A stretch of DNA of 16,518 bases from Fibrobacterales bacterium (GTDB lineage Bacteria; Fibrobacterota; Fibrobacteria; Fibrobacterales; JAOPTW01). The stretch spans positions 1-16,518 of the forward strand of contig JAOPTX010000056.1 in NCBI GenBank assembly GCA_051532055.1, given 5' to 3'. Shown here piece after piece: positions 1,711 through 9,341 of this stretch. The position numbers were made by a program, and so were the translations under genes. Numbering within the stretch: position 1 is the stretch's first letter; each line of letters begins with the position of its first letter. Below the pieces are notes generated by a model, which saw only the letters and a program-made list of their open reading frames with translations, ran no database searches and was not told the origin of the DNA.

Positions 1711-3060
1711 ATGAAAAAAGTTTTAATTGCTAATAGGGGTGAGATTGCGCTTCGCGTGATTAGAGCCTGTAAAGAACTTGGGATTCAAACAGTTGCGATA
1801 CACTCAACTGCAGATAACAATTCTTTACATGTACACTATGCTGATGAAGATGTGTGCGTTGGTCCACCTTTGGCTAAAGATAGTTATCTTAATATTAAAG
1901 AAATATTGGCTGCAGCTGAAATTACAAATGCAGATGGTATTCATCCTGGTTATGGGTTTATGGCAGAGAATGCACATTTCGCTGAAATGTGCAAAGAGAA
2001 TGGCATCGAGTTTATCGGTCCATCTGCTAAAGCGATCCAAGAGCTCGGTGAAAAAACTTATGCGAAAGCTGCTATGAAAAAAGCAGGAGTTCCTTGTATT
2101 CCAGATAGTGAAGGAGTGTTACCTACTGTCGAGTCCGCCAAAAAGAAAGCTGAAGAGATTGGATTCCCAGTAATTCTAAAAGCAGTAGCTGGTGGTGGTG
2201 GCCGCGGAATGCGTGTGGTACATTGTATTGAAGATGTGGAATCACAGTTTAATATTGCGCGTGCAGAATCTGAAGCCTGTTTTTCAAATGGCAGCTTATA
2301 CATGGAGAAGTTTTTTACTGAACCACGACACGTTGAAATTCAGCTTATGGGTGATAAATATGGAAATATGGTTCATCTTGGAGAACGTGATTGTTCTGTA
2401 CAGCGTCGTCACCAAAAGTTGATTGAAGAATCACCATCACCTGCATTTTCTCCTGAAATGAGGAAACAGCTCGGTGAAAGTGCTGTTCGCGGTGCTCTTG
2501 AAGTAGGGTACCATAGTGCGGGTACAATGGAGTTTCTCCATGAGAACGGTAAAAACTTTTTTATGGAAGTGAATACCCGAATTCAGGTTGAACACTGCGT
2601 TACTGAAGAGGTTACTGGAATTGATCTCATCCAAGAAATGCTTCGTGTAGCTCAAGGTGAAAAACTTCAGTTTACTCAAGATGATATTGAATTAAAAGGA
2701 CATGCTCTGGAATGTCGTATTAATGCTGAAGACCCCGCTAAAGACTTCAGACCATCACCTGGTAAAATTGATCATTTTTCTGTACCTGGTGGGCCTGGTG
2801 TCCGTGTAGATAGCCATTGTTATTCTGGATATGTTATACCACCGTATTATGACTCGATGATAGCTAAAATTATTGTTCATGCTCCAACGCGTATGCAAGC
2901 AATTGCTCGTATGCTGAGAGCACTTGATGAATTTGTTATTGAAGGGGTTGAGACAACAATTCCGCTCCATAAAAAAATTCTGCAGCATCCAGTCTTCCAG
3001 TCTGGTAATTTTAATACTAAATTCCTTGAATACTATCCAGAAATTCTGGAAAGTCTTTAA
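1711..3060 (+). CDS. accC: acetyl-CoA carboxylase biotin carboxylase subunit
   Basis: MKKVLIANRGEIALR, HPGYGF, AGGGGRGMR, ERDCSVQRRHQK, EVNTRIQVEH, RINAED and YYDSMIAK motifs; 449 aa; directly downstream of accB. Confidence 0.97.
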   Translation: MKKVLIANRGEIALRVIRACKELGIQTVAIHSTADNNSLHVHYADEDVCVGPPLAKDSYLNIKEILAAAEITNADGIHPGYGFMAENAHFAEMCKENGIEFIGPSAKAIQELGEKTYAKAAMKKAGVPCIPDSEGVLPTVESAKKKAEEIGFPVILKAVAGGGGRGMRVVHCIEDVESQFNIARAESEACFSNGSLYMEKFFTEPRHVEIQLMGDKYGNMVHLGERDCSVQRRHQKLIEESPSPAFSPEMRKQLGESAVRGALEVGYHSAGTMEFLHENGKNFFMEVNTRIQVEHCVTEEVTGIDLIQEMLRVAQGEKLQFTQDDIELKGHALECRINAEDPAKDFRPSPGKIDHFSVPGGPGVRVDSHCYSGYVIPPYYDSMIAKIIVHAPTRMQAIARMLRALDEFVIEGVETTIPLHKKILQHPVFQSGNFNTKFLEYYPEILESL

Positions 3061-3070
3061 GGGAGGGTAC

Positions 3071-3772
3071 ATGCCACGTCATAAGTATTGGTTTGCAATT
3101 ACAGTATCTGTATTAAGTATTGTTCTATTTGTTCAGGCAACAAATGCAGCAAGAGTTGGACAGGTCACTTTTGTTTCAGGAGATGTATTCCTAAAACAAA
3201 AGTCGGGTAAAAGTAAGAATATGAAAGTGCAATACCCTGTTAAGGCGGGGCAAGTATTTACAACTGGATCAGAAAGTATATTAGAAATCACCTATTCGAA
3301 TGGCACAGTTCTTCGAATAGGTGAAAATTCTAGTGTAATATTAAGTGGAAAAAATAGTTCAGCTCCTTTTTTAAATAAGGGTAAGATTTGGGCTAATATT
3401 CAAAAAATGTCAAAGCGTAATGACCCATTTACTATTCAGACGGTTACTGCTACTGCAGCAGTTCGTGGAACGGTTTTTAGTGTTGAAGCAGGCTCTGATT
3501 CAAGTGCGACTATTGCGCTTTTCAAAGGGACAGTTGATGTCGGTCCTGCGGATACAACAGGACTATCAAATGATTCAAATTCGTGGGGGCCACCAAAAGA
3601 GATTAAAGGACCTTATGAAGTTTCTCTCAAAACGTGGATAACCCTAGATCCTGGGCAAGAAATTCATGTGAAATCGAATGGTACCTATAACACGCGCCTA
3701 ATTGATAGTACCTCAACTACTCAGTGGGTGAATTTTAATAAAAACCGTGATATGGAGCTTAATAAGCAGTAA
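3071..3772 (+). CDS. secreted FecR-domain protein
   Basis: ATG 3071 with GGAGG at 3062-3066. Signal-peptide-like N-terminus ending ATNA. FecR-type motifs TTGSES.LEI...NGTVLRIGENS and F.IQTVTATAAVRGTVFSV...ALFKGTVDV. Confidence 0.85.
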   Translation: MPRHKYWFAITVSVLSIVLFVQATNAARVGQVTFVSGDVFLKQKSGKSKNMKVQYPVKAGQVFTTGSESILEITYSNGTVLRIGENSSVILSGKNSSAPFLNKGKIWANIQKMSKRNDPFTIQTVTATAAVRGTVFSVEAGSDSSATIALFKGTVDVGPADTTGLSNDSNSWGPPKEIKGPYEVSLKTWITLDPGQEIHVKSNGTYNTRLIDSTSTTQWVNFNKNRDMELNKQ

Positions 3773-3805
3773 TACTACAGAACTTGTATATTCTTTGGTA
3801 AGTAA

Positions 3806-3849
3806 GATAGTGACTCATGCTATCAAAGCTGCGGGCCCTTTGGGCAGCT
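3806..3849 (+). terminator. two tandem hairpins after the FecR gene (possible terminator or stability element)
   Basis: GATAG(3806-3810)/CTATC(3820-3824), then AGCTGC(3827-3832)/GCAGCT(3844-3849) with an inner GCCC-TTT-GGGC. No clear U-tract. Confidence 0.3.
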
Positions 3850-3871
3850 AACTCATTGAAATTGAAAGAAA

Positions 3872-3901
3872 TGTAAAAAACCTCTTTACAAAAAATTGTA
3901 A
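3872..3901. promoter_or_regulatory. overlapping inverted repeats upstream of mini-nrdD copy 1
   Basis: TGTAAA-N7-TTTACA (3872-3890) overlapping TTACAA-N4-TTGTAA (3886-3901). Confidence 0.4.
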
Positions 3902-3947
3902 CTGGAGCATCTTGTATATATAGGGTTTCACAAACAAGGGGTAATCA

Positions 3948-4130
3948 ATGTCAGCAGCTATCATTCTCCATGATCATGAAAGAACGAAATGTGAAGTTTG
4001 GACTCGGGTAATGGGATATTATCGTCCAGTGAGTGAATTTAATATTGGGAAACGTGCTGAATTTAAAGAACGTACTCCTTTTAATGAAATTAAGGCACTT
4101 TACTCAACAAGAGAGTCTGCAGTAGCATAA
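3948..4130 (+). CDS. stand-alone NrdD C-terminal glycyl-radical domain protein (mini-NrdD), copy 1
   Basis: 60 aa. CEVWTRVMGYYRPVSEFNIGKRAEFKER matches the class III RNR C-terminal RVxGY...N.GK..E...R glycyl loop (Gly23). AAGGGG SD at 3936-3941. Confidence 0.9.
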   Translation: MSAAIILHDHERTKCEVWTRVMGYYRPVSEFNIGKRAEFKERTPFNEIKALYSTRESAVA

Positions 4131-4135
4131 CCTAC

Positions 4136-4176
4136 CCATTCTTGTTATCATACCGGTATTCTGGTGACAAGAATGG
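4136..4176 (+). terminator. stable hairpin immediately after mini-nrdD copy 1
   Basis: Perfect 10-bp arms CCATTCTTGT (4136-4145) / ACAAGAATGG (4167-4176), starting 5 nt after the stop, with inner ACCGG-TATT-CTGGT. U-tract is weak. Confidence 0.55.
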
Positions 4177-4241
4177 ATATTCAACTCAAAATACTCCATT
4201 TTTTTAAAGCATTTAAATGTGAGAATTTGTACAATAAAAAT

Positions 4242-5210
4242 ATGAAAAAATTGATATTCGTTACATTTCTGAGTCTTATTGCTCTCTGTTGTACGCAAAT
4301 AAATGATGTCCCCCAGGATTCACATATTCTCCCTATGGTACGCTATAATTATAATTTGGATAGTACTGTATATGATTCAGCATGGGTTGAATATGAAGAT
4401 ACCCTTCTTGTAATTGAAAATGAGAGTGGAATTGATACGTTTTACCTGAAGAGTCACTTTGAAGAGCGGTTCGTATACGGAACTGATGCACTTGTGTTAA
4501 CTCAAGTATATGATACGGTAATTCGTTCATATGACCAGGGATTTAATTATGCATATGTTTCGGGTGGTGATACCCTCACGGAGTTAGAACGATTTCCGAG
4601 CCTGTCAAGTAGTTCAAGTTTGGTGGTTTCGAGTGAAAGTAGTAGCAATCAATCGAGCGATGTTTTAAGCTCTACAGAGATATCTTCTTCCGACATTATT
4701 GTATTAAGTTCAACGGATGGAGTAAGTTCCTTAGTTCAATCAAGTGAGGTAATTTCAAGTAGTTCTACAACAGGTTCTTCAGCAGTATCTTCATCATCGG
4801 ATGATTTGAGATATATCAAAATTAATGTAATTTCAAAATCATTACTATCACCGCCAAATTTAGATGGAAGTAATTATAAAATGTATATGCACATTTATTA
4901 TGATGGAGCTGGTACAGAAATTGATGTTGATCTGGATAATCTTATCCTGAGATATAGAGAAAATTATGCTGAGGTTAACGGAGTCAAATTTGATAGTTTA
5001 TCATTTTCGACACTGGATACTGTACCTTATAATTCAAATACAAAAGAAATTACTTTTGGTCTCAATGATACCGCAAAAATTCAGATGTATTACCCCGTAG
5101 ATACTTCGAAAACAGTCATGAAAATTTCGTTCTCTAATTATGATAATTATTTTTATGGAATTGTAGATTCCGTGGCTTATCAACAATACCTTGATTCTCT
5201 TGATCAATAA
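4242..5210 (+). CDS. hypothetical lipoprotein with central Ser-rich linker
   Basis: Start reassigned to ATG 4242: MKKLIFVTFLSLIALC(C) is a signal-peptide-II-like N-terminus. A ~65-aa poly-Ser linker separates two non-repetitive domains. Confidence 0.75.
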   Translation: MKKLIFVTFLSLIALCCTQINDVPQDSHILPMVRYNYNLDSTVYDSAWVEYEDTLLVIENESGIDTFYLKSHFEERFVYGTDALVLTQVYDTVIRSYDQGFNYAYVSGGDTLTELERFPSLSSSSSLVVSSESSSNQSSDVLSSTEISSSDIIVLSSTDGVSSLVQSSEVISSSSTTGSSAVSSSSDDLRYIKINVISKSLLSPPNLDGSNYKMYMHIYYDGAGTEIDVDLDNLILRYRENYAEVNGVKFDSLSFSTLDTVPYNSNTKEITFGLNDTAKIQMYYPVDTSKTVMKISFSNYDNYFYGIVDSVAYQQYLDSLDQ

Positions 5211-5219
5211 GGACACGAA

Positions 5220-5423
5220 ATGTTAAAAAATATACTCTCAATAGTTGTTCTTATTGCATCATGTTTTATGGTTCATACTTACAGGTTTGAACTTGCATCA
5301 ACTTATATGATTAACTCATTAAATATTAACCTTGAGACCTATTATTTAGAGCTCGAGTTAGAAGAATTACAAAAAAGTATAGCGCATCAACACCTATCAA
5401 TCGCGCGACTACAGAAACAATAG
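5220..5423 (+). CDS. small hypothetical membrane-anchored protein
   Basis: AAGGA SD at 5209-5213 overlapping the upstream stop. Hydrophobic N-terminal helix followed by a Leu/Glu-rich, coiled-coil-like tail; 67 aa. Confidence 0.5.
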   Translation: MLKNILSIVVLIASCFMVHTYRFELASTYMINSLNINLETYYLELELEELQKSIAHQHLSIARLQKQ

Positions 5424-5436
5424 ATTTCATTTTATC

Positions 5437-5458
5437 AACAACGTGTATACAGGTTGTT
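5437..5458. promoter_or_regulatory. near-perfect 22-bp palindrome
   Basis: AACAACGTGTA|TACAGGTTGTT, one mismatched pair. Confidence 0.35.
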
Positions 5459-5541
5459 CATGTAGTATCAATGATTTCGTCCATGATGTGGTTGGGTGAC
5501 CATATATATACACTATAGAGTGTTTGTTTTAGGTTGCAGAC

Positions 5542-5570
5542 TTGTAAAGCATCTAAATACAAGCTATAAT
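5542..5570 (+). promoter_or_regulatory. sigma70-type promoter of mini-nrdD copy 2, overlapped by the inverted repeat CTTGTA-N11-TACAAG
   Basis: TTGTAA (5542-5547), 17-nt spacer, consensus TATAAT (5565-5570), 25 nt before ATG 5596. Confidence 0.65.
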
Positions 5571-5595
5571 TACTCCACTATATGGAGATGATGTA

Positions 5596-5775
5596 ATGAC
5601 ACATACTATTTTAAAAAATTCAGAAAGAACTAAATGCGAAATTTGGACACGAGTTATGGGCTATCACAGACCGGTCTCAGAGTTTAATATTGGCAAACAG
5701 TCAGAATATGCTGAACGTACTGTTTTCAATGAAAGAGTTGCACAAGAATCTCAAGAAAAGAGTGCTGTCGCATAA
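5596..5775 (+). CDS. stand-alone NrdD C-terminal glycyl-radical domain protein (mini-NrdD), copy 2; absent from the ORF track
   Basis: Hand translation: MTHTILKNSERTKCEIWTRVMGYHRPVSEFNIGKQSEYAERTVFNERVAQESQEKSAVA* (59 aa). GGAG SD at 5584-5587. 39/59 identical to copy 1 by manual alignment. Confidence 0.9.
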   Translation: MTHTILKNSERTKCEIWTRVMGYHRPVSEFNIGKQSEYAERTVFNERVAQESQEKSAVA

Positions 5776-5864
5776 TTGAAAATGTGCTTAATAAAAGTAA
5801 CACTGTGAACGCAGATGTACATTTATCGTTTATAAATGCTAAAAGTAGAGTTGTTCATGTGGTA

Positions 5865-5887
5865 TTTGTTCACGGTATGTGAACAAA
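5865..5887. promoter_or_regulatory. perfect inverted repeat upstream of the DNRLRE lipoprotein (candidate operator)
   Basis: TTTGTTCAC-GGTAT-GTGAACAAA, with an extra TGTTCA half-site at 5852-5857. Confidence 0.5.
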
Positions 5888-5971
5888 ACTGGATAAAATG
5901 AAGAATTTTTAAATGTAAATAAATAATGGTAATCCTATATTTTACCTATAACGATAATTTGAGGATTTACA

Positions 5972-8395
5972 GTGAAGCTATTTACATCTTTTATTTTGAC
6001 AATACTAGCGCTCTATTTGAGTTCTTGCAGTATTACTTCTGAAAATGACTCATCGTTTTCGATAACCGGTATAACTATTACTGGATCAAATAAAACAACG
6101 GCACTATCTCCTGTAGCATTTAAAAATAGCAAAATAATATCTGAAGTTACACAAGCAAATGTATCTGTATACTTGTATAAAAAAGGATCTGAACATGTTG
6201 TTATAGATTCAACACAAACTGATGCATCAGGGTATTTCCAGTTTCACGTTTTGGAACCGGGTGAGTTTACTATAATGGCAGATCTTAATACAATATTAGG
6301 AGGCGTGACTCGTGAAATATCGATATCAAATTCAGTTCGCCAGCGTAATGATATCAAAATTTCATTAACTAATTACGAATTTAAGGCAATTGACCTGGAA
6401 GGGAAGAATGTTACGAGTGTCAAATATTTTCATCGAAACCTTACCTCGATAACTGGAGATTATATTGTCCCAGCTTTATTAGGAATAAATCAGTTTATAA
6501 CAGTAGTTGAACCTCAAAATAGTGGATCACTTAAAAGAAACGTATATGCAATTGTAAATATTGAAGCATCTATAAGTGTAACCTTAATTGAGGTTCAAAA
6601 TGTTGATGCTAGTAGCAGTGAAAATACAACAAGCGGCATGTCTTCAAGTTCATTTTTTACTATCAATTCTTCTTCTCGAAATGCAGCGATGAGTTCCTCA
6701 GTAGATTCCGATATCATTTTTTCATCAAGTACTCCAGTAGGAAATGAATTTATACCAGCAATTCCTAAAGTAAATTATCAATACTCAACAATAATTCAAT
6801 TTGATGAAGAGTCTGCTAAAGATGCAAATATTGTTTTTAATGGAAGTTTAGAGAATACCCAAAATACTGGTAGAAATGATGGTGAACTAAGAGTCTTTGT
6901 TGCAGGTACTTACGATAAGAATACTAGAATGCGAACATTGATAGAGTTCAATACTATTCCTGAAACAATAGTAACAGATAACGTGAGTTTTGCTTATATG
7001 GTATTATACCGAGATCAGACTTGGGAAAAACATTTTACTAATGACTATACAATTGACGCACATAAAATGCTCGTTCCGTGGAAAGAAGGGACAAGTAAGG
7101 CTCCAGATCCGAGTGCGTGGTACACCTATGGGTATGACAACAGTTTGTACAACGGCGCAACGGGCTTAGAGGCTCAGTATGGTGTTCACTGGAGTGAAGA
7201 AGGTGTTGGGCTGAATAATATTGATGCCGAAACAATGCCAACGAGTTCGGTAACTATTGTCAAAGAACATCTCCTTACTTTTGATAGTGTCGCTATTATA
7301 TTATCGGGTGCTGTACATGATTGGGTGCAAAATCCATCAACTAACTATGGAGTACTTTTAAGGAATACATATGATAGTGGTAATGACGAAAATTACCCTA
7401 CCTATCCTATGTTTCATTCAGGAGAGTCTCCTATTGTTGCGAAAAGGCCAAAACTTGTTGTTGTTCTGAAACAACCAATCGAGCAAAATTCTTCATCTGA
7501 GACCACTGTATCATCTAGTGATTTATTGAGTTCAGTAGAAGTATTATCTTCTAGTGAATTAACGAGCTCGACAACAGATTTGTCATCATCCATTTTACTC
7601 TCAAGTTCATCGGTAATCAGTTCAAGTACTGAACTGCCTTCTTCTTCAAGTATTTTATTACCGAATGATGAATTAAGTAGTGTTGATCAATATAATCAAG
7701 TTCCGCTAGGATTAGATTATTCGAACTCAATAATAATACAGCCAGACAATACAACTGGCAAAGACAGTCAAATAGGGATAGATTCATACATTCAGAGAAA
7801 TGATGGTGAAGTACAATTTTTAACTGTTGGAAAGTATGATGGAAGTACCAGAACTCGCTCACTTATAGAATTTACAGCCCTTTCAACTCCTCAGATTGAT
7901 AGTGTTCCGAAATTTGCTTATTTGGTATTGTACAGAAGGACTACTTGGAGTAAACATTACGAAGTTGATTTTAAAATAGATTTTCATAAGTTACTTAAAC
8001 CTTGGAAAGAAGGGAGTGGAGAACCATCATCAGTTGACCTTCATTTTTCGACAGCAAATGATAACTCAATTGCTGATGGAGTGACTGGGCAAGAAGCTTT
8101 TTATAATGAAAGCTGGAATGAAGTAGGAGTTGGTTTAAATGATATCGATGCTGGTAGCTTGCCTATTGCTTATGGAATAGTAAAAGAAAATGAAATGGCA
8201 ACTTTCGATAGTCTAGCAGTAAATATGACTGAGGCTGTTAAATTTTGGATAGAGAATCCATCAGAAAATTATGGATTTATTATGAGGCATGAAGATGACC
8301 TAACTTTAGATATTTCTATCCCAAGTTATCCTAGCTTCTACAGTTGTGAGATAGGGCTTGTAGATAAAAGGCCAAAGCTTGTCTTAGTCTATTAA
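5972..8395 (+). CDS. lipoprotein with N-terminal carboxypeptidase-regulatory/prealbumin-like domain, Ser-rich linkers and two DNRLRE domains
   Basis: GTG start with GAGGA at 5961-5965; lipobox LSSC (Cys19); TQTDASGYFQF motif. Two homologous domains (about aa 274-499 and 588-807) with R.LIEF, PWKEG, W..NPS.NYG, F.S.E and RPKLV motifs. Confidence 0.85.
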   Translation: MKLFTSFILTILALYLSSCSITSENDSSFSITGITITGSNKTTALSPVAFKNSKIISEVTQANVSVYLYKKGSEHVVIDSTQTDASGYFQFHVLEPGEFTIMADLNTILGGVTREISISNSVRQRNDIKISLTNYEFKAIDLEGKNVTSVKYFHRNLTSITGDYIVPALLGINQFITVVEPQNSGSLKRNVYAIVNIEASISVTLIEVQNVDASSSENTTSGMSSSSFFTINSSSRNAAMSSSVDSDIIFSSSTPVGNEFIPAIPKVNYQYSTIIQFDEESAKDANIVFNGSLENTQNTGRNDGELRVFVAGTYDKNTRMRTLIEFNTIPETIVTDNVSFAYMVLYRDQTWEKHFTNDYTIDAHKMLVPWKEGTSKAPDPSAWYTYGYDNSLYNGATGLEAQYGVHWSEEGVGLNNIDAETMPTSSVTIVKEHLLTFDSVAIILSGAVHDWVQNPSTNYGVLLRNTYDSGNDENYPTYPMFHSGESPIVAKRPKLVVVLKQPIEQNSSSETTVSSSDLLSSVEVLSSSELTSSTTDLSSSILLSSSSVISSSTELPSSSSILLPNDELSSVDQYNQVPLGLDYSNSIIIQPDNTTGKDSQIGIDSYIQRNDGEVQFLTVGKYDGSTRTRSLIEFTALSTPQIDSVPKFAYLVLYRRTTWSKHYEVDFKIDFHKLLKPWKEGSGEPSSVDLHFSTANDNSIADGVTGQEAFYNESWNEVGVGLNDIDAGSLPIAYGIVKENEMATFDSLAVNMTEAVKFWIENPSENYGFIMRHEDDLTLDISIPSYPSFYSCEIGLVDKRPKLVLVY

Positions 8396-8448: not shown

Positions 8449-8477
8449 TTTACTAACTCGATTTGTATAGTTACATT
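8449..8477 (+). promoter_or_regulatory. candidate promoter for a leaderless TIGR02147 transcript
   Basis: TTTACT (8449-8454), N17, TACATT (8472-8477), then 6 nt to ATG 8484. No SD. Confidence 0.35.
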
Positions 8478-8483
8478 GTTACA

Positions 8484-9341
8484 ATGATCAATATATATGA
8501 TTACGATAGTAATATTACTTATTTAAATGATTGGTTTAAAAGCCAAAAAGAGGGAAATAAAAAGTTCTCTCATCAATTTTTTGCCCATAAAGCTGGATTA
8601 AATTCTCGTAGCTATATGGCAAATATCTTAAATGGTTCACGGTGCATTAACGCGAAAAATATTTTTAAAATCGCTGAAGGTTTAGGATTGGTTGGTAAAG
8701 AGGTTCTTTATTTTGAAACTTTAGTATACTATAGTCAATGTATTGAGCTAAAAGACAAAGGTCGCTTCTTTTTAGCTCTTCAAAAATTAAAGCCGAAATC
8801 TAAAGTAAATCATTTAAAAAGTATGCAGTATGAATATTTTCAAAAATGGTATTACCCTGCCTTAAGAGAATTACTGACCTATTATGATTTTGGTGGGGAT
8901 TATAAAATACTTGGCCAGCAAATTTTACCAGCTATATCAGGAGCTGAGGCTAAACGAGCAGTTCAATTACTTTTAGATCTCCAGCTCATAGAAAAAATAA
9001 AACATGAACCTCCGACCTCCAAGATCGTTCAAAATAATAAATGGGGTTTGTATCGTCAAACTGAAGGTGTTATTTTTGGAGATGATAAGTATGAGTCTAT
9101 GGTAGTTCGAAGCTATCAGGAAAATACGTTAGACTTGGCTAAAAAAGCTTTATCTAAAATTGAAAGTAACAAACAGAGCTTTAATACATATACCTATAGT
9201 GTAGATTCTATCGGAGCCAAAGAAGTCGATAATCTGATACAGGAATTTCAGGAAAAGCTCATATCGATAGTGAATAATGCAAAAAATGTAAATAATACCT
9301 ATCAATTAAATCTGCAGCTGTTCCCACTTACCAAGGACTAG
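8484..9341 (+). CDS. TIGR02147 family protein (N-terminal XRE-like HTH, DUF4423-like C-terminus), putative regulator
   Basis: INIYDY...YLNDWF...K...FS...FA.KAGL.SRSY...ILNG.R; YFETLV.YSQ; YEYFQKWYYPALREL; C-terminal YQLNLQLFPLTK. Start placed at ATG 8484 rather than TTG 8463. Confidence 0.88.
   Translation: MINIYDYDSNITYLNDWFKSQKEGNKKFSHQFFAHKAGLNSRSYMANILNGSRCINAKNIFKIAEGLGLVGKEVLYFETLVYYSQCIELKDKGRFFLALQKLKPKSKVNHLKSMQYEYFQKWYYPALRELLTYYDFGGDYKILGQQILPAISGAEAKRAVQLLLDLQLIEKIKHEPPTSKIVQNNKWGLYRQTEGVIFGDDKYESMVVRSYQENTLDLAKKALSKIESNKQSFNTYTYSVDSIGAKEVDNLIQEFQEKLISIVNNAKNVNNTYQLNLQLFPLTKD

Follow-up and report, generated by a model that had tools for sequence, protein, structure and literature searches.

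Two short genes in the genome of a Fibrobacterales bacterium encode little more than the C-terminal glycyl-radical loop of the anaerobic (class III) ribonucleotide reductase (RNR) NrdD, which raises the question of what such isolated loops are for. These genes, here named m1 and m2, lie 1.6 kb apart in a stretch of 16,518 nt (contig JAOPTX010000056.1 of assembly GCA_051532055.1; hereafter the window). An initial annotation, made from the letters of the window, had called them orphan radical domains and offered two explanations: spare parts for NrdD analogous to GrcA, or alternative small subunits of a split NrdD. In this work, we found that the second explanation is supported by the content of the source genome, and we consider it likely that m1 and m2 belong to a set of paralogs for the small subunit that bears the radical in a two-gene class III RNR, for which they would serve as exchangeable or alternative radical subunits.

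The gene m1 (3948..4130, + strand) encodes a 60-aa stand-alone glycyl-radical subunit of the NrdD type, with the radical Gly at residue 23 and an invariant Cys at residue 15. Its 59-aa paralog m2 (5596..5775, + strand) has the radical Gly at residue 22 and the Cys at residue 14. The two products share 38 of 55 aligned residues in BLASTP (E = 6e-28) and are 66% identical in a global alignment, consistent with the 39/59 counted in the initial annotation. Both contain the loop TRVMGY[Y/H]RPVSEFNIGK and a single Cys located eight residues N-terminal to the TRVMGY Gly, and both lack a Zn ribbon and a barrel. The Pfam profile NRDD (PF13597; length 562, cut-off 26.2 bits) matched m1 at positions 530-561 (35.6 bits) and m2 at positions 532-562 (31.2 bits), and both proteins matched positions 649-683 of the 684 positions in the NCBIfam model NF006126. 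The whole-enzyme cut-offs of NCBIfam were not reached, as expected for a 60-aa piece. The likeness to the NrdD tail is far beyond chance, and the description of the two genes as glycyl loops with one Cys each stands. Only NRDD-type models were matched; no model of the pyruvate formate-lyase (PFL) type Gly_radical domain or of GrcA matched m1 or m2 at E ≤0.01 (Pfam) or ≤1 (NCBIfam). In an alignment of 49 such small proteins (hereafter minis), the R, V, G, and Y of the RVxGY motif and the Cys corresponding to Cys15 of m1 are invariant in 49 of 49. The mini profile, which is too short for such a search, had no match in the PDB at E ≤1, and the GenBank phage collection yielded one weak match to m1, a protein of the ANMV-1 virus annotated as anaerobic RNR (47% identity over 36 residues).

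The source genome (5.17 Mb in 181 contigs, 94% complete, 39.6% G+C) contains one NrdD body and four tail matches according to the PF13597 search, and a permissive tblastn search recovered exactly four minis, namely, m1 and m2 in the window, m3 on contig C94, and m4 in an nrd operon on contig C23. The contig of the window (C56) contributed just two tail matches, and no nrdD body or nrdG was found in the window, as had been noted at the outset. Although m1 and m2 lie on a different contig from nrdD, they are not orphans in the genome, which has four minis, one of which resides in the operon itself. In this operon, nrdD ends in TAA after ...CPTHGYLTGEYDYCPKCDEALIEKKLKEQGVTTSV, right behind the Zn ribbon. 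After a gap of 90 nt, which contains three in-frame stops, comes the 61-aa open reading frame (ORF) of m4, which encodes the same glycyl loop, and then nrdG, a 233-aa radical S-adenosylmethionine (SAM) gene that overlaps the end of m4. Fusion or split was judged from the DNA, since open-frame read-outs ran through the stops between nrdD and m4. The NrdD body has 582 aa and a Cys-His-Cys-Cys Zn ribbon (CPTH...CPKC), with neither an ATP-cone nor a glycyl loop. It matched NF006126 with 1039 bits (cut-off 548) at positions 97-656 of 684, such that the first 96 and the last 28 positions are missing, and the body and a mini together tile this model. The body also carries a double-Cys finger loop (MCCR), which one article (PMC9669993) describes as a trait of the T. 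maritima-type NrdD subclass. The activase encoded directly after m4 is NrdG2 (TIGR02495, 192.9 bits; cut-off 131.15). The combination of a tail-less nrdD, an operon mini, and an NrdG2 activase indicates that the class III RNR of this bacterium is a two-gene enzyme, and it is well supported that m1 and m2 encode two of the four paralogs of the radical subunit in a class III RNR that is naturally split. The initial annotation had suggested looking for a class III RNR with its activase elsewhere in the genome and reading a missing RVxGY tail as the sign of a split enzyme; both proteins are encoded, the tail is missing, and the row of tail-less nrdD, mini, and nrdG supports its proposal of alternative small subunits.

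The same arrangement bears on the other proposal, that the minis are strict spare parts of the GrcA type that rescue a full-length NrdD after O2 has cost it its own glycyl domain. Stand-alone, separately promoted small genes with a glycyl loop only are what this proposal would predict, and a comparable arrangement exists elsewhere in the phylum, in genome G148, where an orphan mini coexists with two NrdDs that both keep their own fused tails. However, the only NrdD body in the source genome stops after CPTH...CPKC, the only body in the sister species G001 is likewise tail-less, and no full-length NrdD was found in these two genomes (drafts 94 and 91% complete). The minis also have no homology to the PFL-type Gly_radical domain or to GrcA. 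Because NrdD has no tail of its own, a spare part for an intact NrdD is not supported in the source genome, and we regard this explanation as very improbable. The arrangement in G148 is the one closest to a true GrcA-like spare part; its orphan mini (L103:2016-2192, 59-aa frame, PF13597 35.6 bits) has a Ser instead of the usual residue in the loop (RVSGYYRP) and no Cys.

Split NrdDs appear to have a wide distribution. In a survey of species genomes, we inspected the best 80 of more than 600 stretches matching the two most conserved peptide patterns, a sample that is biased to this NrdD type. Among these loci, 72 are split (body, stop or frame change, separate mini), and nrdG lies downstream in 70 of the 72; another three are fused, and the remaining five lack a body in the locus. 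The loci span isolates of Betaproteobacteria (Janthinobacterium, Massilia, Castellaniella, and others), Omnitrophota, Verrucomicrobiota, Chlamydiae, Armatimonadota, and Elusimicrobiota. By this count, being split is the norm for this NrdD type, and the statement in the initial annotation that short ORFs beside nrdD and nrdG occur as apparent split genes was correct. The tail-less bodies are 69-74% identical to that of the source genome, across phyla as far apart as Fibrobacterota, Betaproteobacteria, Omnitrophota, and Armatimonadota, and this unusually high identity suggests horizontal spread of a three-gene cassette. Among metagenomic small proteins (32-107 aa), at least 7998 of 7999 scored matched the profile of the four minis at E ≤0.001; the few that carry a name are called 'anaerobic ribonucleoside-triphosphate reductase' or 'hypothetical protein', and the close relatives are labelled Fibrobacterales.

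Within Fibrobacterota (296 genomes), this tail type was found in 98 genomes at E ≤1e-4, mostly in frames of 700-800 aa, i.e., fused. Four short copies were found in only the source genome and G001, single short frames in G271, G276, and G005, and one short frame each besides fused enzymes in G148 and G076. We also examined five genomes (G041-G045) that were chosen because each holds an orphan locus. In addition to the operon mini, G042 and G043 have one more and G044 has three more, and in G041 and G045 the body and the mini are unlinked. In the alphaproteobacterial order around G044, from which 120 genomes were drawn evenly, a mini is present in 119 of 121 genomes, with two copies in 24, three in 2, and four in 3; thus, at least two minis are found in 29 of 121 genomes (28 of 120 without G044). 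Every multi-copy genome checked (the source genome, G001, G042, G043, G044, G348, G415, G416, and G420) has a single large subunit alongside two to four minis. By these counts, multi-copy minis arose repeatedly in other lineages. The initial annotation had called the duplication unusual, which needs to be softened given its frequency in this one order. A second split type was observed in Fibrobacter-type genomes, in which a body matching PF13597 positions 1-531 is accompanied by a separate 48-54-aa mini with an E. coli-like sequence (RRITGYLVG..RFN.AK.AEV.DRVKH). It was seen at L110:2181-2342 (G126, genus g6) and L111:2021-2299 (G019, genus g8), in one genome per genus, with the mini and the NrdD body on separate contigs in genus g8. 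This second type looks unrelated to the first, and class III RNR therefore seems to have been split on more than one occasion.

To see whether a window mini fits the body, we modeled m1 together with the tail-less NrdD, using alignments of 32 rows for the large subunit and 49 rows for the mini. The interface score (ipSAE) was 0.79 (0.77, 0.79, and 0.81 in individual runs), compared with 0.00 for the best of three controls; the ipSAE mark of the model is reached by 116 of 157 solved complexes and by 2 of 215 mismatched pairs. Contact agreement among runs was at least 90%, and the predicted local distance difference test (pLDDT) score of the partner was at least 75. In the model, mini residues 12-19 pair with residues 544-548 and 558-564 of the large subunit, which are the two arms of the Zn ribbon, and C15 of the mini touches C548 and C561. 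In three fused tails examined (two in G148 and one in G076), the place of this Cys is taken by Thr or Ala; its invariance in the minis suggests that it helps to tether the mini at or near the Zn site. Among solved structures, the T. maritima NrdD (4COI, E = 3.8e-31) is the best match to the NrdD body.

The model also bears on the idea that the minis are radical subunits of a different, unrecognised partner enzyme. The location of m1 and m2, away from the nrd operon and beside unrelated secreted-protein genes, would suit such a role. However, the sequences are NrdD-specific, no second tail-less glycyl-radical enzyme body was found in the source genome by the PF13597 search, and the predicted docking of m1 is on the NrdD large subunit, with a score of 0.00 for another large protein as control. 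We give this idea the least credence of all those considered.

Comparison with G001 informs on the maintenance of the four minis. This sister species likewise has one NrdD body and four minis, and its window-type pair is again 1.6 kb apart on one contig. The ratios of nonsynonymous to synonymous substitution rates (dN/dS; Nei-Gojobori method, source genome versus G001) are 0.086 for m1 (dS 0.556), 0.238 for m2 (dS 0.560), 0.087 for m3 (dS 0.428), and 0.052 for the operon copy m4 (dS 0.546), compared with 0.024 for the NrdD large subunit (dS 0.925). All four minis are under purifying selection. In m2, residues 1-47 are conserved and the last 12 residues are fast-evolving (dN 0.52), with the terminal AVA kept. 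Across all four minis, the core residues 11-47 are nearly identical and the C-terminal tails differ. A tree of 40 minis pairs each mini of the source genome with its G001 ortholog (supports 99/82, 95/72, 99/87, and 95/65); metagenomic orthologs join the m2, m3, and operon-type pairs, and the operon type forms a separate clade (97/95). This pairing and the separate operon clade indicate that the paralogs are old, separately maintained lineages rather than recent copies. Only short chance-like repeats were found around m1 and m2, so nothing there points to a mobile element or to a segmental duplication of recent date. The C-terminus is A-[V/T]-A in all four minis (window 4100-4127 and 5745-5772; L004:1618-1644; L005:1621-1647). 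The possibility that these ends mimic a transfer-messenger RNA tag or degron was considered and dropped: the tag of this genome ends in AMAA, the likeness is loose, and the C-termini of minis in other phyla are different (AAE, QVA, CGCS, and others). Numerous minis from other phyla do close with comparable small-residue motifs (AAE, QVA, AKA).

These patterns are relevant to a simpler explanation, namely, that the four minis are redundant, interchangeable duplicates that raise the dosage and have no part in specialisation or repair. In favour of this, a small subunit might just be required in surplus, the cores of all four are nearly identical, and there is only a single large subunit for all of them. 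Yet each paralog has been kept as a distinct lineage with its own ortholog in G001, multi-copy states arose repeatedly in other lineages, and the copies differ in their C-terminal tails and in their upstream regions, which are themselves conserved and carry NrdR-like sites of varying strength and layout. We consider an effect on dosage only to be unlikely.

The upstream regions point to separate expression. In the ~90 nt before each mini, the two species are much more alike than in the sequence farther upstream. For m1, pairwise alignment places this region at 3858..3947 (+ strand), near-identical in both species and followed by divergence farther upstream, and it is probably a promoter/operator with a Shine-Dalgarno (SD) sequence. 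SD-like purine-rich stretches precede both window minis (AAGGGG for m1 and GGAG for m2), such that the earlier statement that each mini has its own SD and upstream region is upheld. The best sigma-70-like promoter match in 3600-6100 is TTGTAA-17-TATAAT upstream of m2 (5542..5570, + strand, 10/12); such matches are fewer in this region than in shuffles of it, and 5542..5570 is a consensus match only.

The genome encodes the repressor NrdR on contig C12 (TIGR00244, 173.5 bits, above cut-off). NrdR boxes are usually found in tandem, ~31-32 bp apart. A first scan for two boxes 30-33 bp apart, with an assumed 16-bp consensus, produced 34 matches genome-wide, including those upstream of an RTPR-like gene, a PF02867 RNR gene, nrdD, nrdR, and m3. 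We then scored the mini upstream regions with a position weight matrix derived from ten sites of RNR and nrdR genes other than minis, with the upstream regions of 3355 ORFs of at least 150 aa as background. A site for m2 (ATACACTATAGAGTGT, 5508..5523) is at -88 from the start and scores 13.1 bits, with 13.2 bits at -89 in G001, where a second NrdR-like site is found 31 bp upstream of the first. For m3, two sites in tandem, 32 bp apart, score 10.4 bits at -91 and 9.1 bits at -59, and G001 has almost the same scores at these positions. The site for m1 (CTTGTATATATAGGGT, 3911..3926, -37 from the start) is weak, scoring 9.2 bits here and 8.4 bits at the corresponding place in G001. The best scores are reached by 3.8% (m1), 0.45% (m2), and 1.6% (m3) of the background regions. 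Based on these scores, NrdR control is probable for m2 and m3 and possible for m1.

Beyond the minis, the source genome was observed to encode three reductase types, all with NrdR-box-like pairs upstream: the split class III enzyme, an RTPR-like class II reductase (C9:8188-10434; TIGR02505, 210 bits, below cut-off), and the large subunit of a PF02867 class I/II reductase (C27:34307-36559). This repertoire fits life across oxygen gradients. The second-best tandem pair (26 of 32; C121:514-560) has no recognisable RNR gene behind it, and downstream on the + strand there is only Ser-rich sequence that gives no clear ORF.

Transcription apart from the enzyme genes could also mean that the dispersed minis act as regulators or decoys, which contend with the operon-encoded subunit for NrdG2 or the docking site and thereby tune the class III enzyme or shut it down, or which store radicals off the enzyme. 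Their predicted docking surface and activase motif are the same as those of the operon copy. Nevertheless, neither the radical Gly nor any loop residue varies, and they are under purifying selection, which a pure blocker would not need; the NrdR-like sites that the minis share with RNR genes suggest that they are induced together with these genes and do not oppose them. Such roles seem decidedly unlikely.

For the reading that we prefer, in which the minis are exchangeable or alternative radical subunits, the following mechanism may be proposed. NrdG2 and SAM would put the radical on the TRVMGY Gly of a free or docked mini. Through strand pairing, the mini would attach to the large subunit at its Zn-ribbon hairpin and bring its own invariant Cys beside the Zn ligands, and this docking would insert the glycyl loop into the barrel, as in a single-chain NrdD. 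Oxygen cleaves glycyl-radical enzymes irreversibly at the radical glycine. With the oxygen-labile part being a separate 7-kDa protein, a damaged copy could be replaced alone, and a cleaved or spent mini could be swapped without remaking the large subunit. The three dispersed and separately promoted minis, probably under NrdR control, would add to the supply or provide condition-specific radical subunits for the single catalytic subunit. We infer this role in exchange and repair from the genome sequences.

Several points weigh against this reading. The radical, the interaction, and the replacement of minis after O2 damage are deduced from genomes and a model, and plain dosage redundancy with neither exchange nor repair would give the same genomic picture. 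Single-chain NrdDs have been solved (T. maritima 4COI/4U3E and T4 1H78), such that the docking result may reflect model memory; the model indicates that m1 resembles the missing tail, not that this particular paralog binds. With a source genome that is 94% complete, a further NrdD could be unassembled. The NrdR motif is AT-rich, the consensus of the first scan was an assumed one, and the site of m1 has a low score (9.2 bits). The two species are close kin, so the conserved positions of the NrdR-like sites would not count as independent support. Finally, the tree rests on only 61 columns, and many of its forks lack resolution.

A broader generalization may be entertained tentatively, with somewhat less than even expectation: in many bacteria, class III RNR may be a two-component enzyme with a ~60-aa glycyl-radical 'cartridge' that is made, activated, and replaced independently of the body and tethered via a Zn site shared by the two chains (the mini Cys beside C548, C561, and C564), with several differently regulated cartridges per enzyme in genomes like this one. 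If true, this would be the first spare-part-like radical supply outside formate lyases and a built-in means of surviving transient oxygen.

Profile scans of the neighbouring genes identified a FecR-domain protein, Ser-rich secreted proteins, and a protein with helix-turn-helix (HTH) and DUF4423 domains (ORF at 8463-9341), none with a link to nucleotide metabolism; other neighbours are presumably accB/accC-like, based on their translations. The minis are flanked by highly acidic or Ser-rich repetitive secreted proteins (1-1096, 4164-5210, and 5972-8395), and one 807-aa ORF of the window contains a disaggregatase-related repeat region in two internal copies, at scores below cut-off. Directly after the m1 stop, an inverted repeat (4133..4179; 18-nt arms, 83% complementary, 11-nt loop) is a possible transcript-end hairpin that lacks a T run. 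A terminator scan of 3600-6100 found none, and no Rfam family matched the window at gathering score. In a small metatranscriptome from the sample that also gave the probable source reads, 5% of the sampled words from 3600-6100 were present, with contigs covering other genes, e.g., 3055-3655 and the end of an enolase gene; no piece over m1 or m2 was among the matches listed, and such contigs cannot show absence.

A separate, multiplied, and separately regulated 7-kDa radical loop would change the view of activation, turnover, and oxygen tolerance in anaerobic DNA-precursor synthesis. The large subunit, small subunit, and activase can be mixed and exchanged in vitro, which offers a simple experimental handle. 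For annotation, a tail-less NrdD body could pass for a truncated pseudogene, and the 60-aa minis at present go by 'anaerobic ribonucleoside-triphosphate reductase' or 'hypothetical protein'. A full-text literature search, with subscription journals and supplements outside its scope, turned up neither a two-gene class III RNR nor a stand-alone NrdD radical protein. Relative to the literature found, the system is a variant of a known enzyme that is undescribed as a two-gene class III RNR.

Among known systems, the closest is the single-chain NrdD with its NrdG (T4 1H78/1H79, T. maritima 4COI/4U3E, and P. copri 8P23), which has the same catalytic body, Zn ribbon, RVxGY loop, and radical-SAM activase. 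In contrast, the chain described here is divided into two genes at a point between the Zn ribbon and the glycyl loop, there are four paralogs of the small piece, and the minis have an invariant Cys where three fused tails have Thr or Ala. Split reductases are known from another class, in that the class II RNR of Pseudomonas aeruginosa consists of two polypeptides, NrdJa and NrdJb; however, the break point is different, and the small part is not known to carry a radical or to be multiplied. Small subunits are also found in other glycyl-radical enzymes, namely, HpdC of 4-hydroxyphenylacetate decarboxylase and the beta and gamma subunits of BSS; like the minis, these are small extra polypeptides that the enzyme needs, but unlike the minis they are not known to carry the radical glycine. 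GrcA for PFL is the one known remedy for an O2-cleaved glycyl-radical enzyme. According to a 2026 review (PMC13450708), formate lyases are the sole class among these enzymes with identified spare-part proteins. GrcA/YfiD of E. coli and Y06I of phage T4 are likewise small stand-alone glycyl-radical loops encoded away from the gene of their enzyme, and they share with the minis the logic of a replaceable oxygen-labile part that is presumably activated by the enzyme's own activase. The differences are that the minis have no sequence relation to the PFL-type domain, and that the target of GrcA has a glycyl-radical domain of its own, whereas the NrdD described here never has one.

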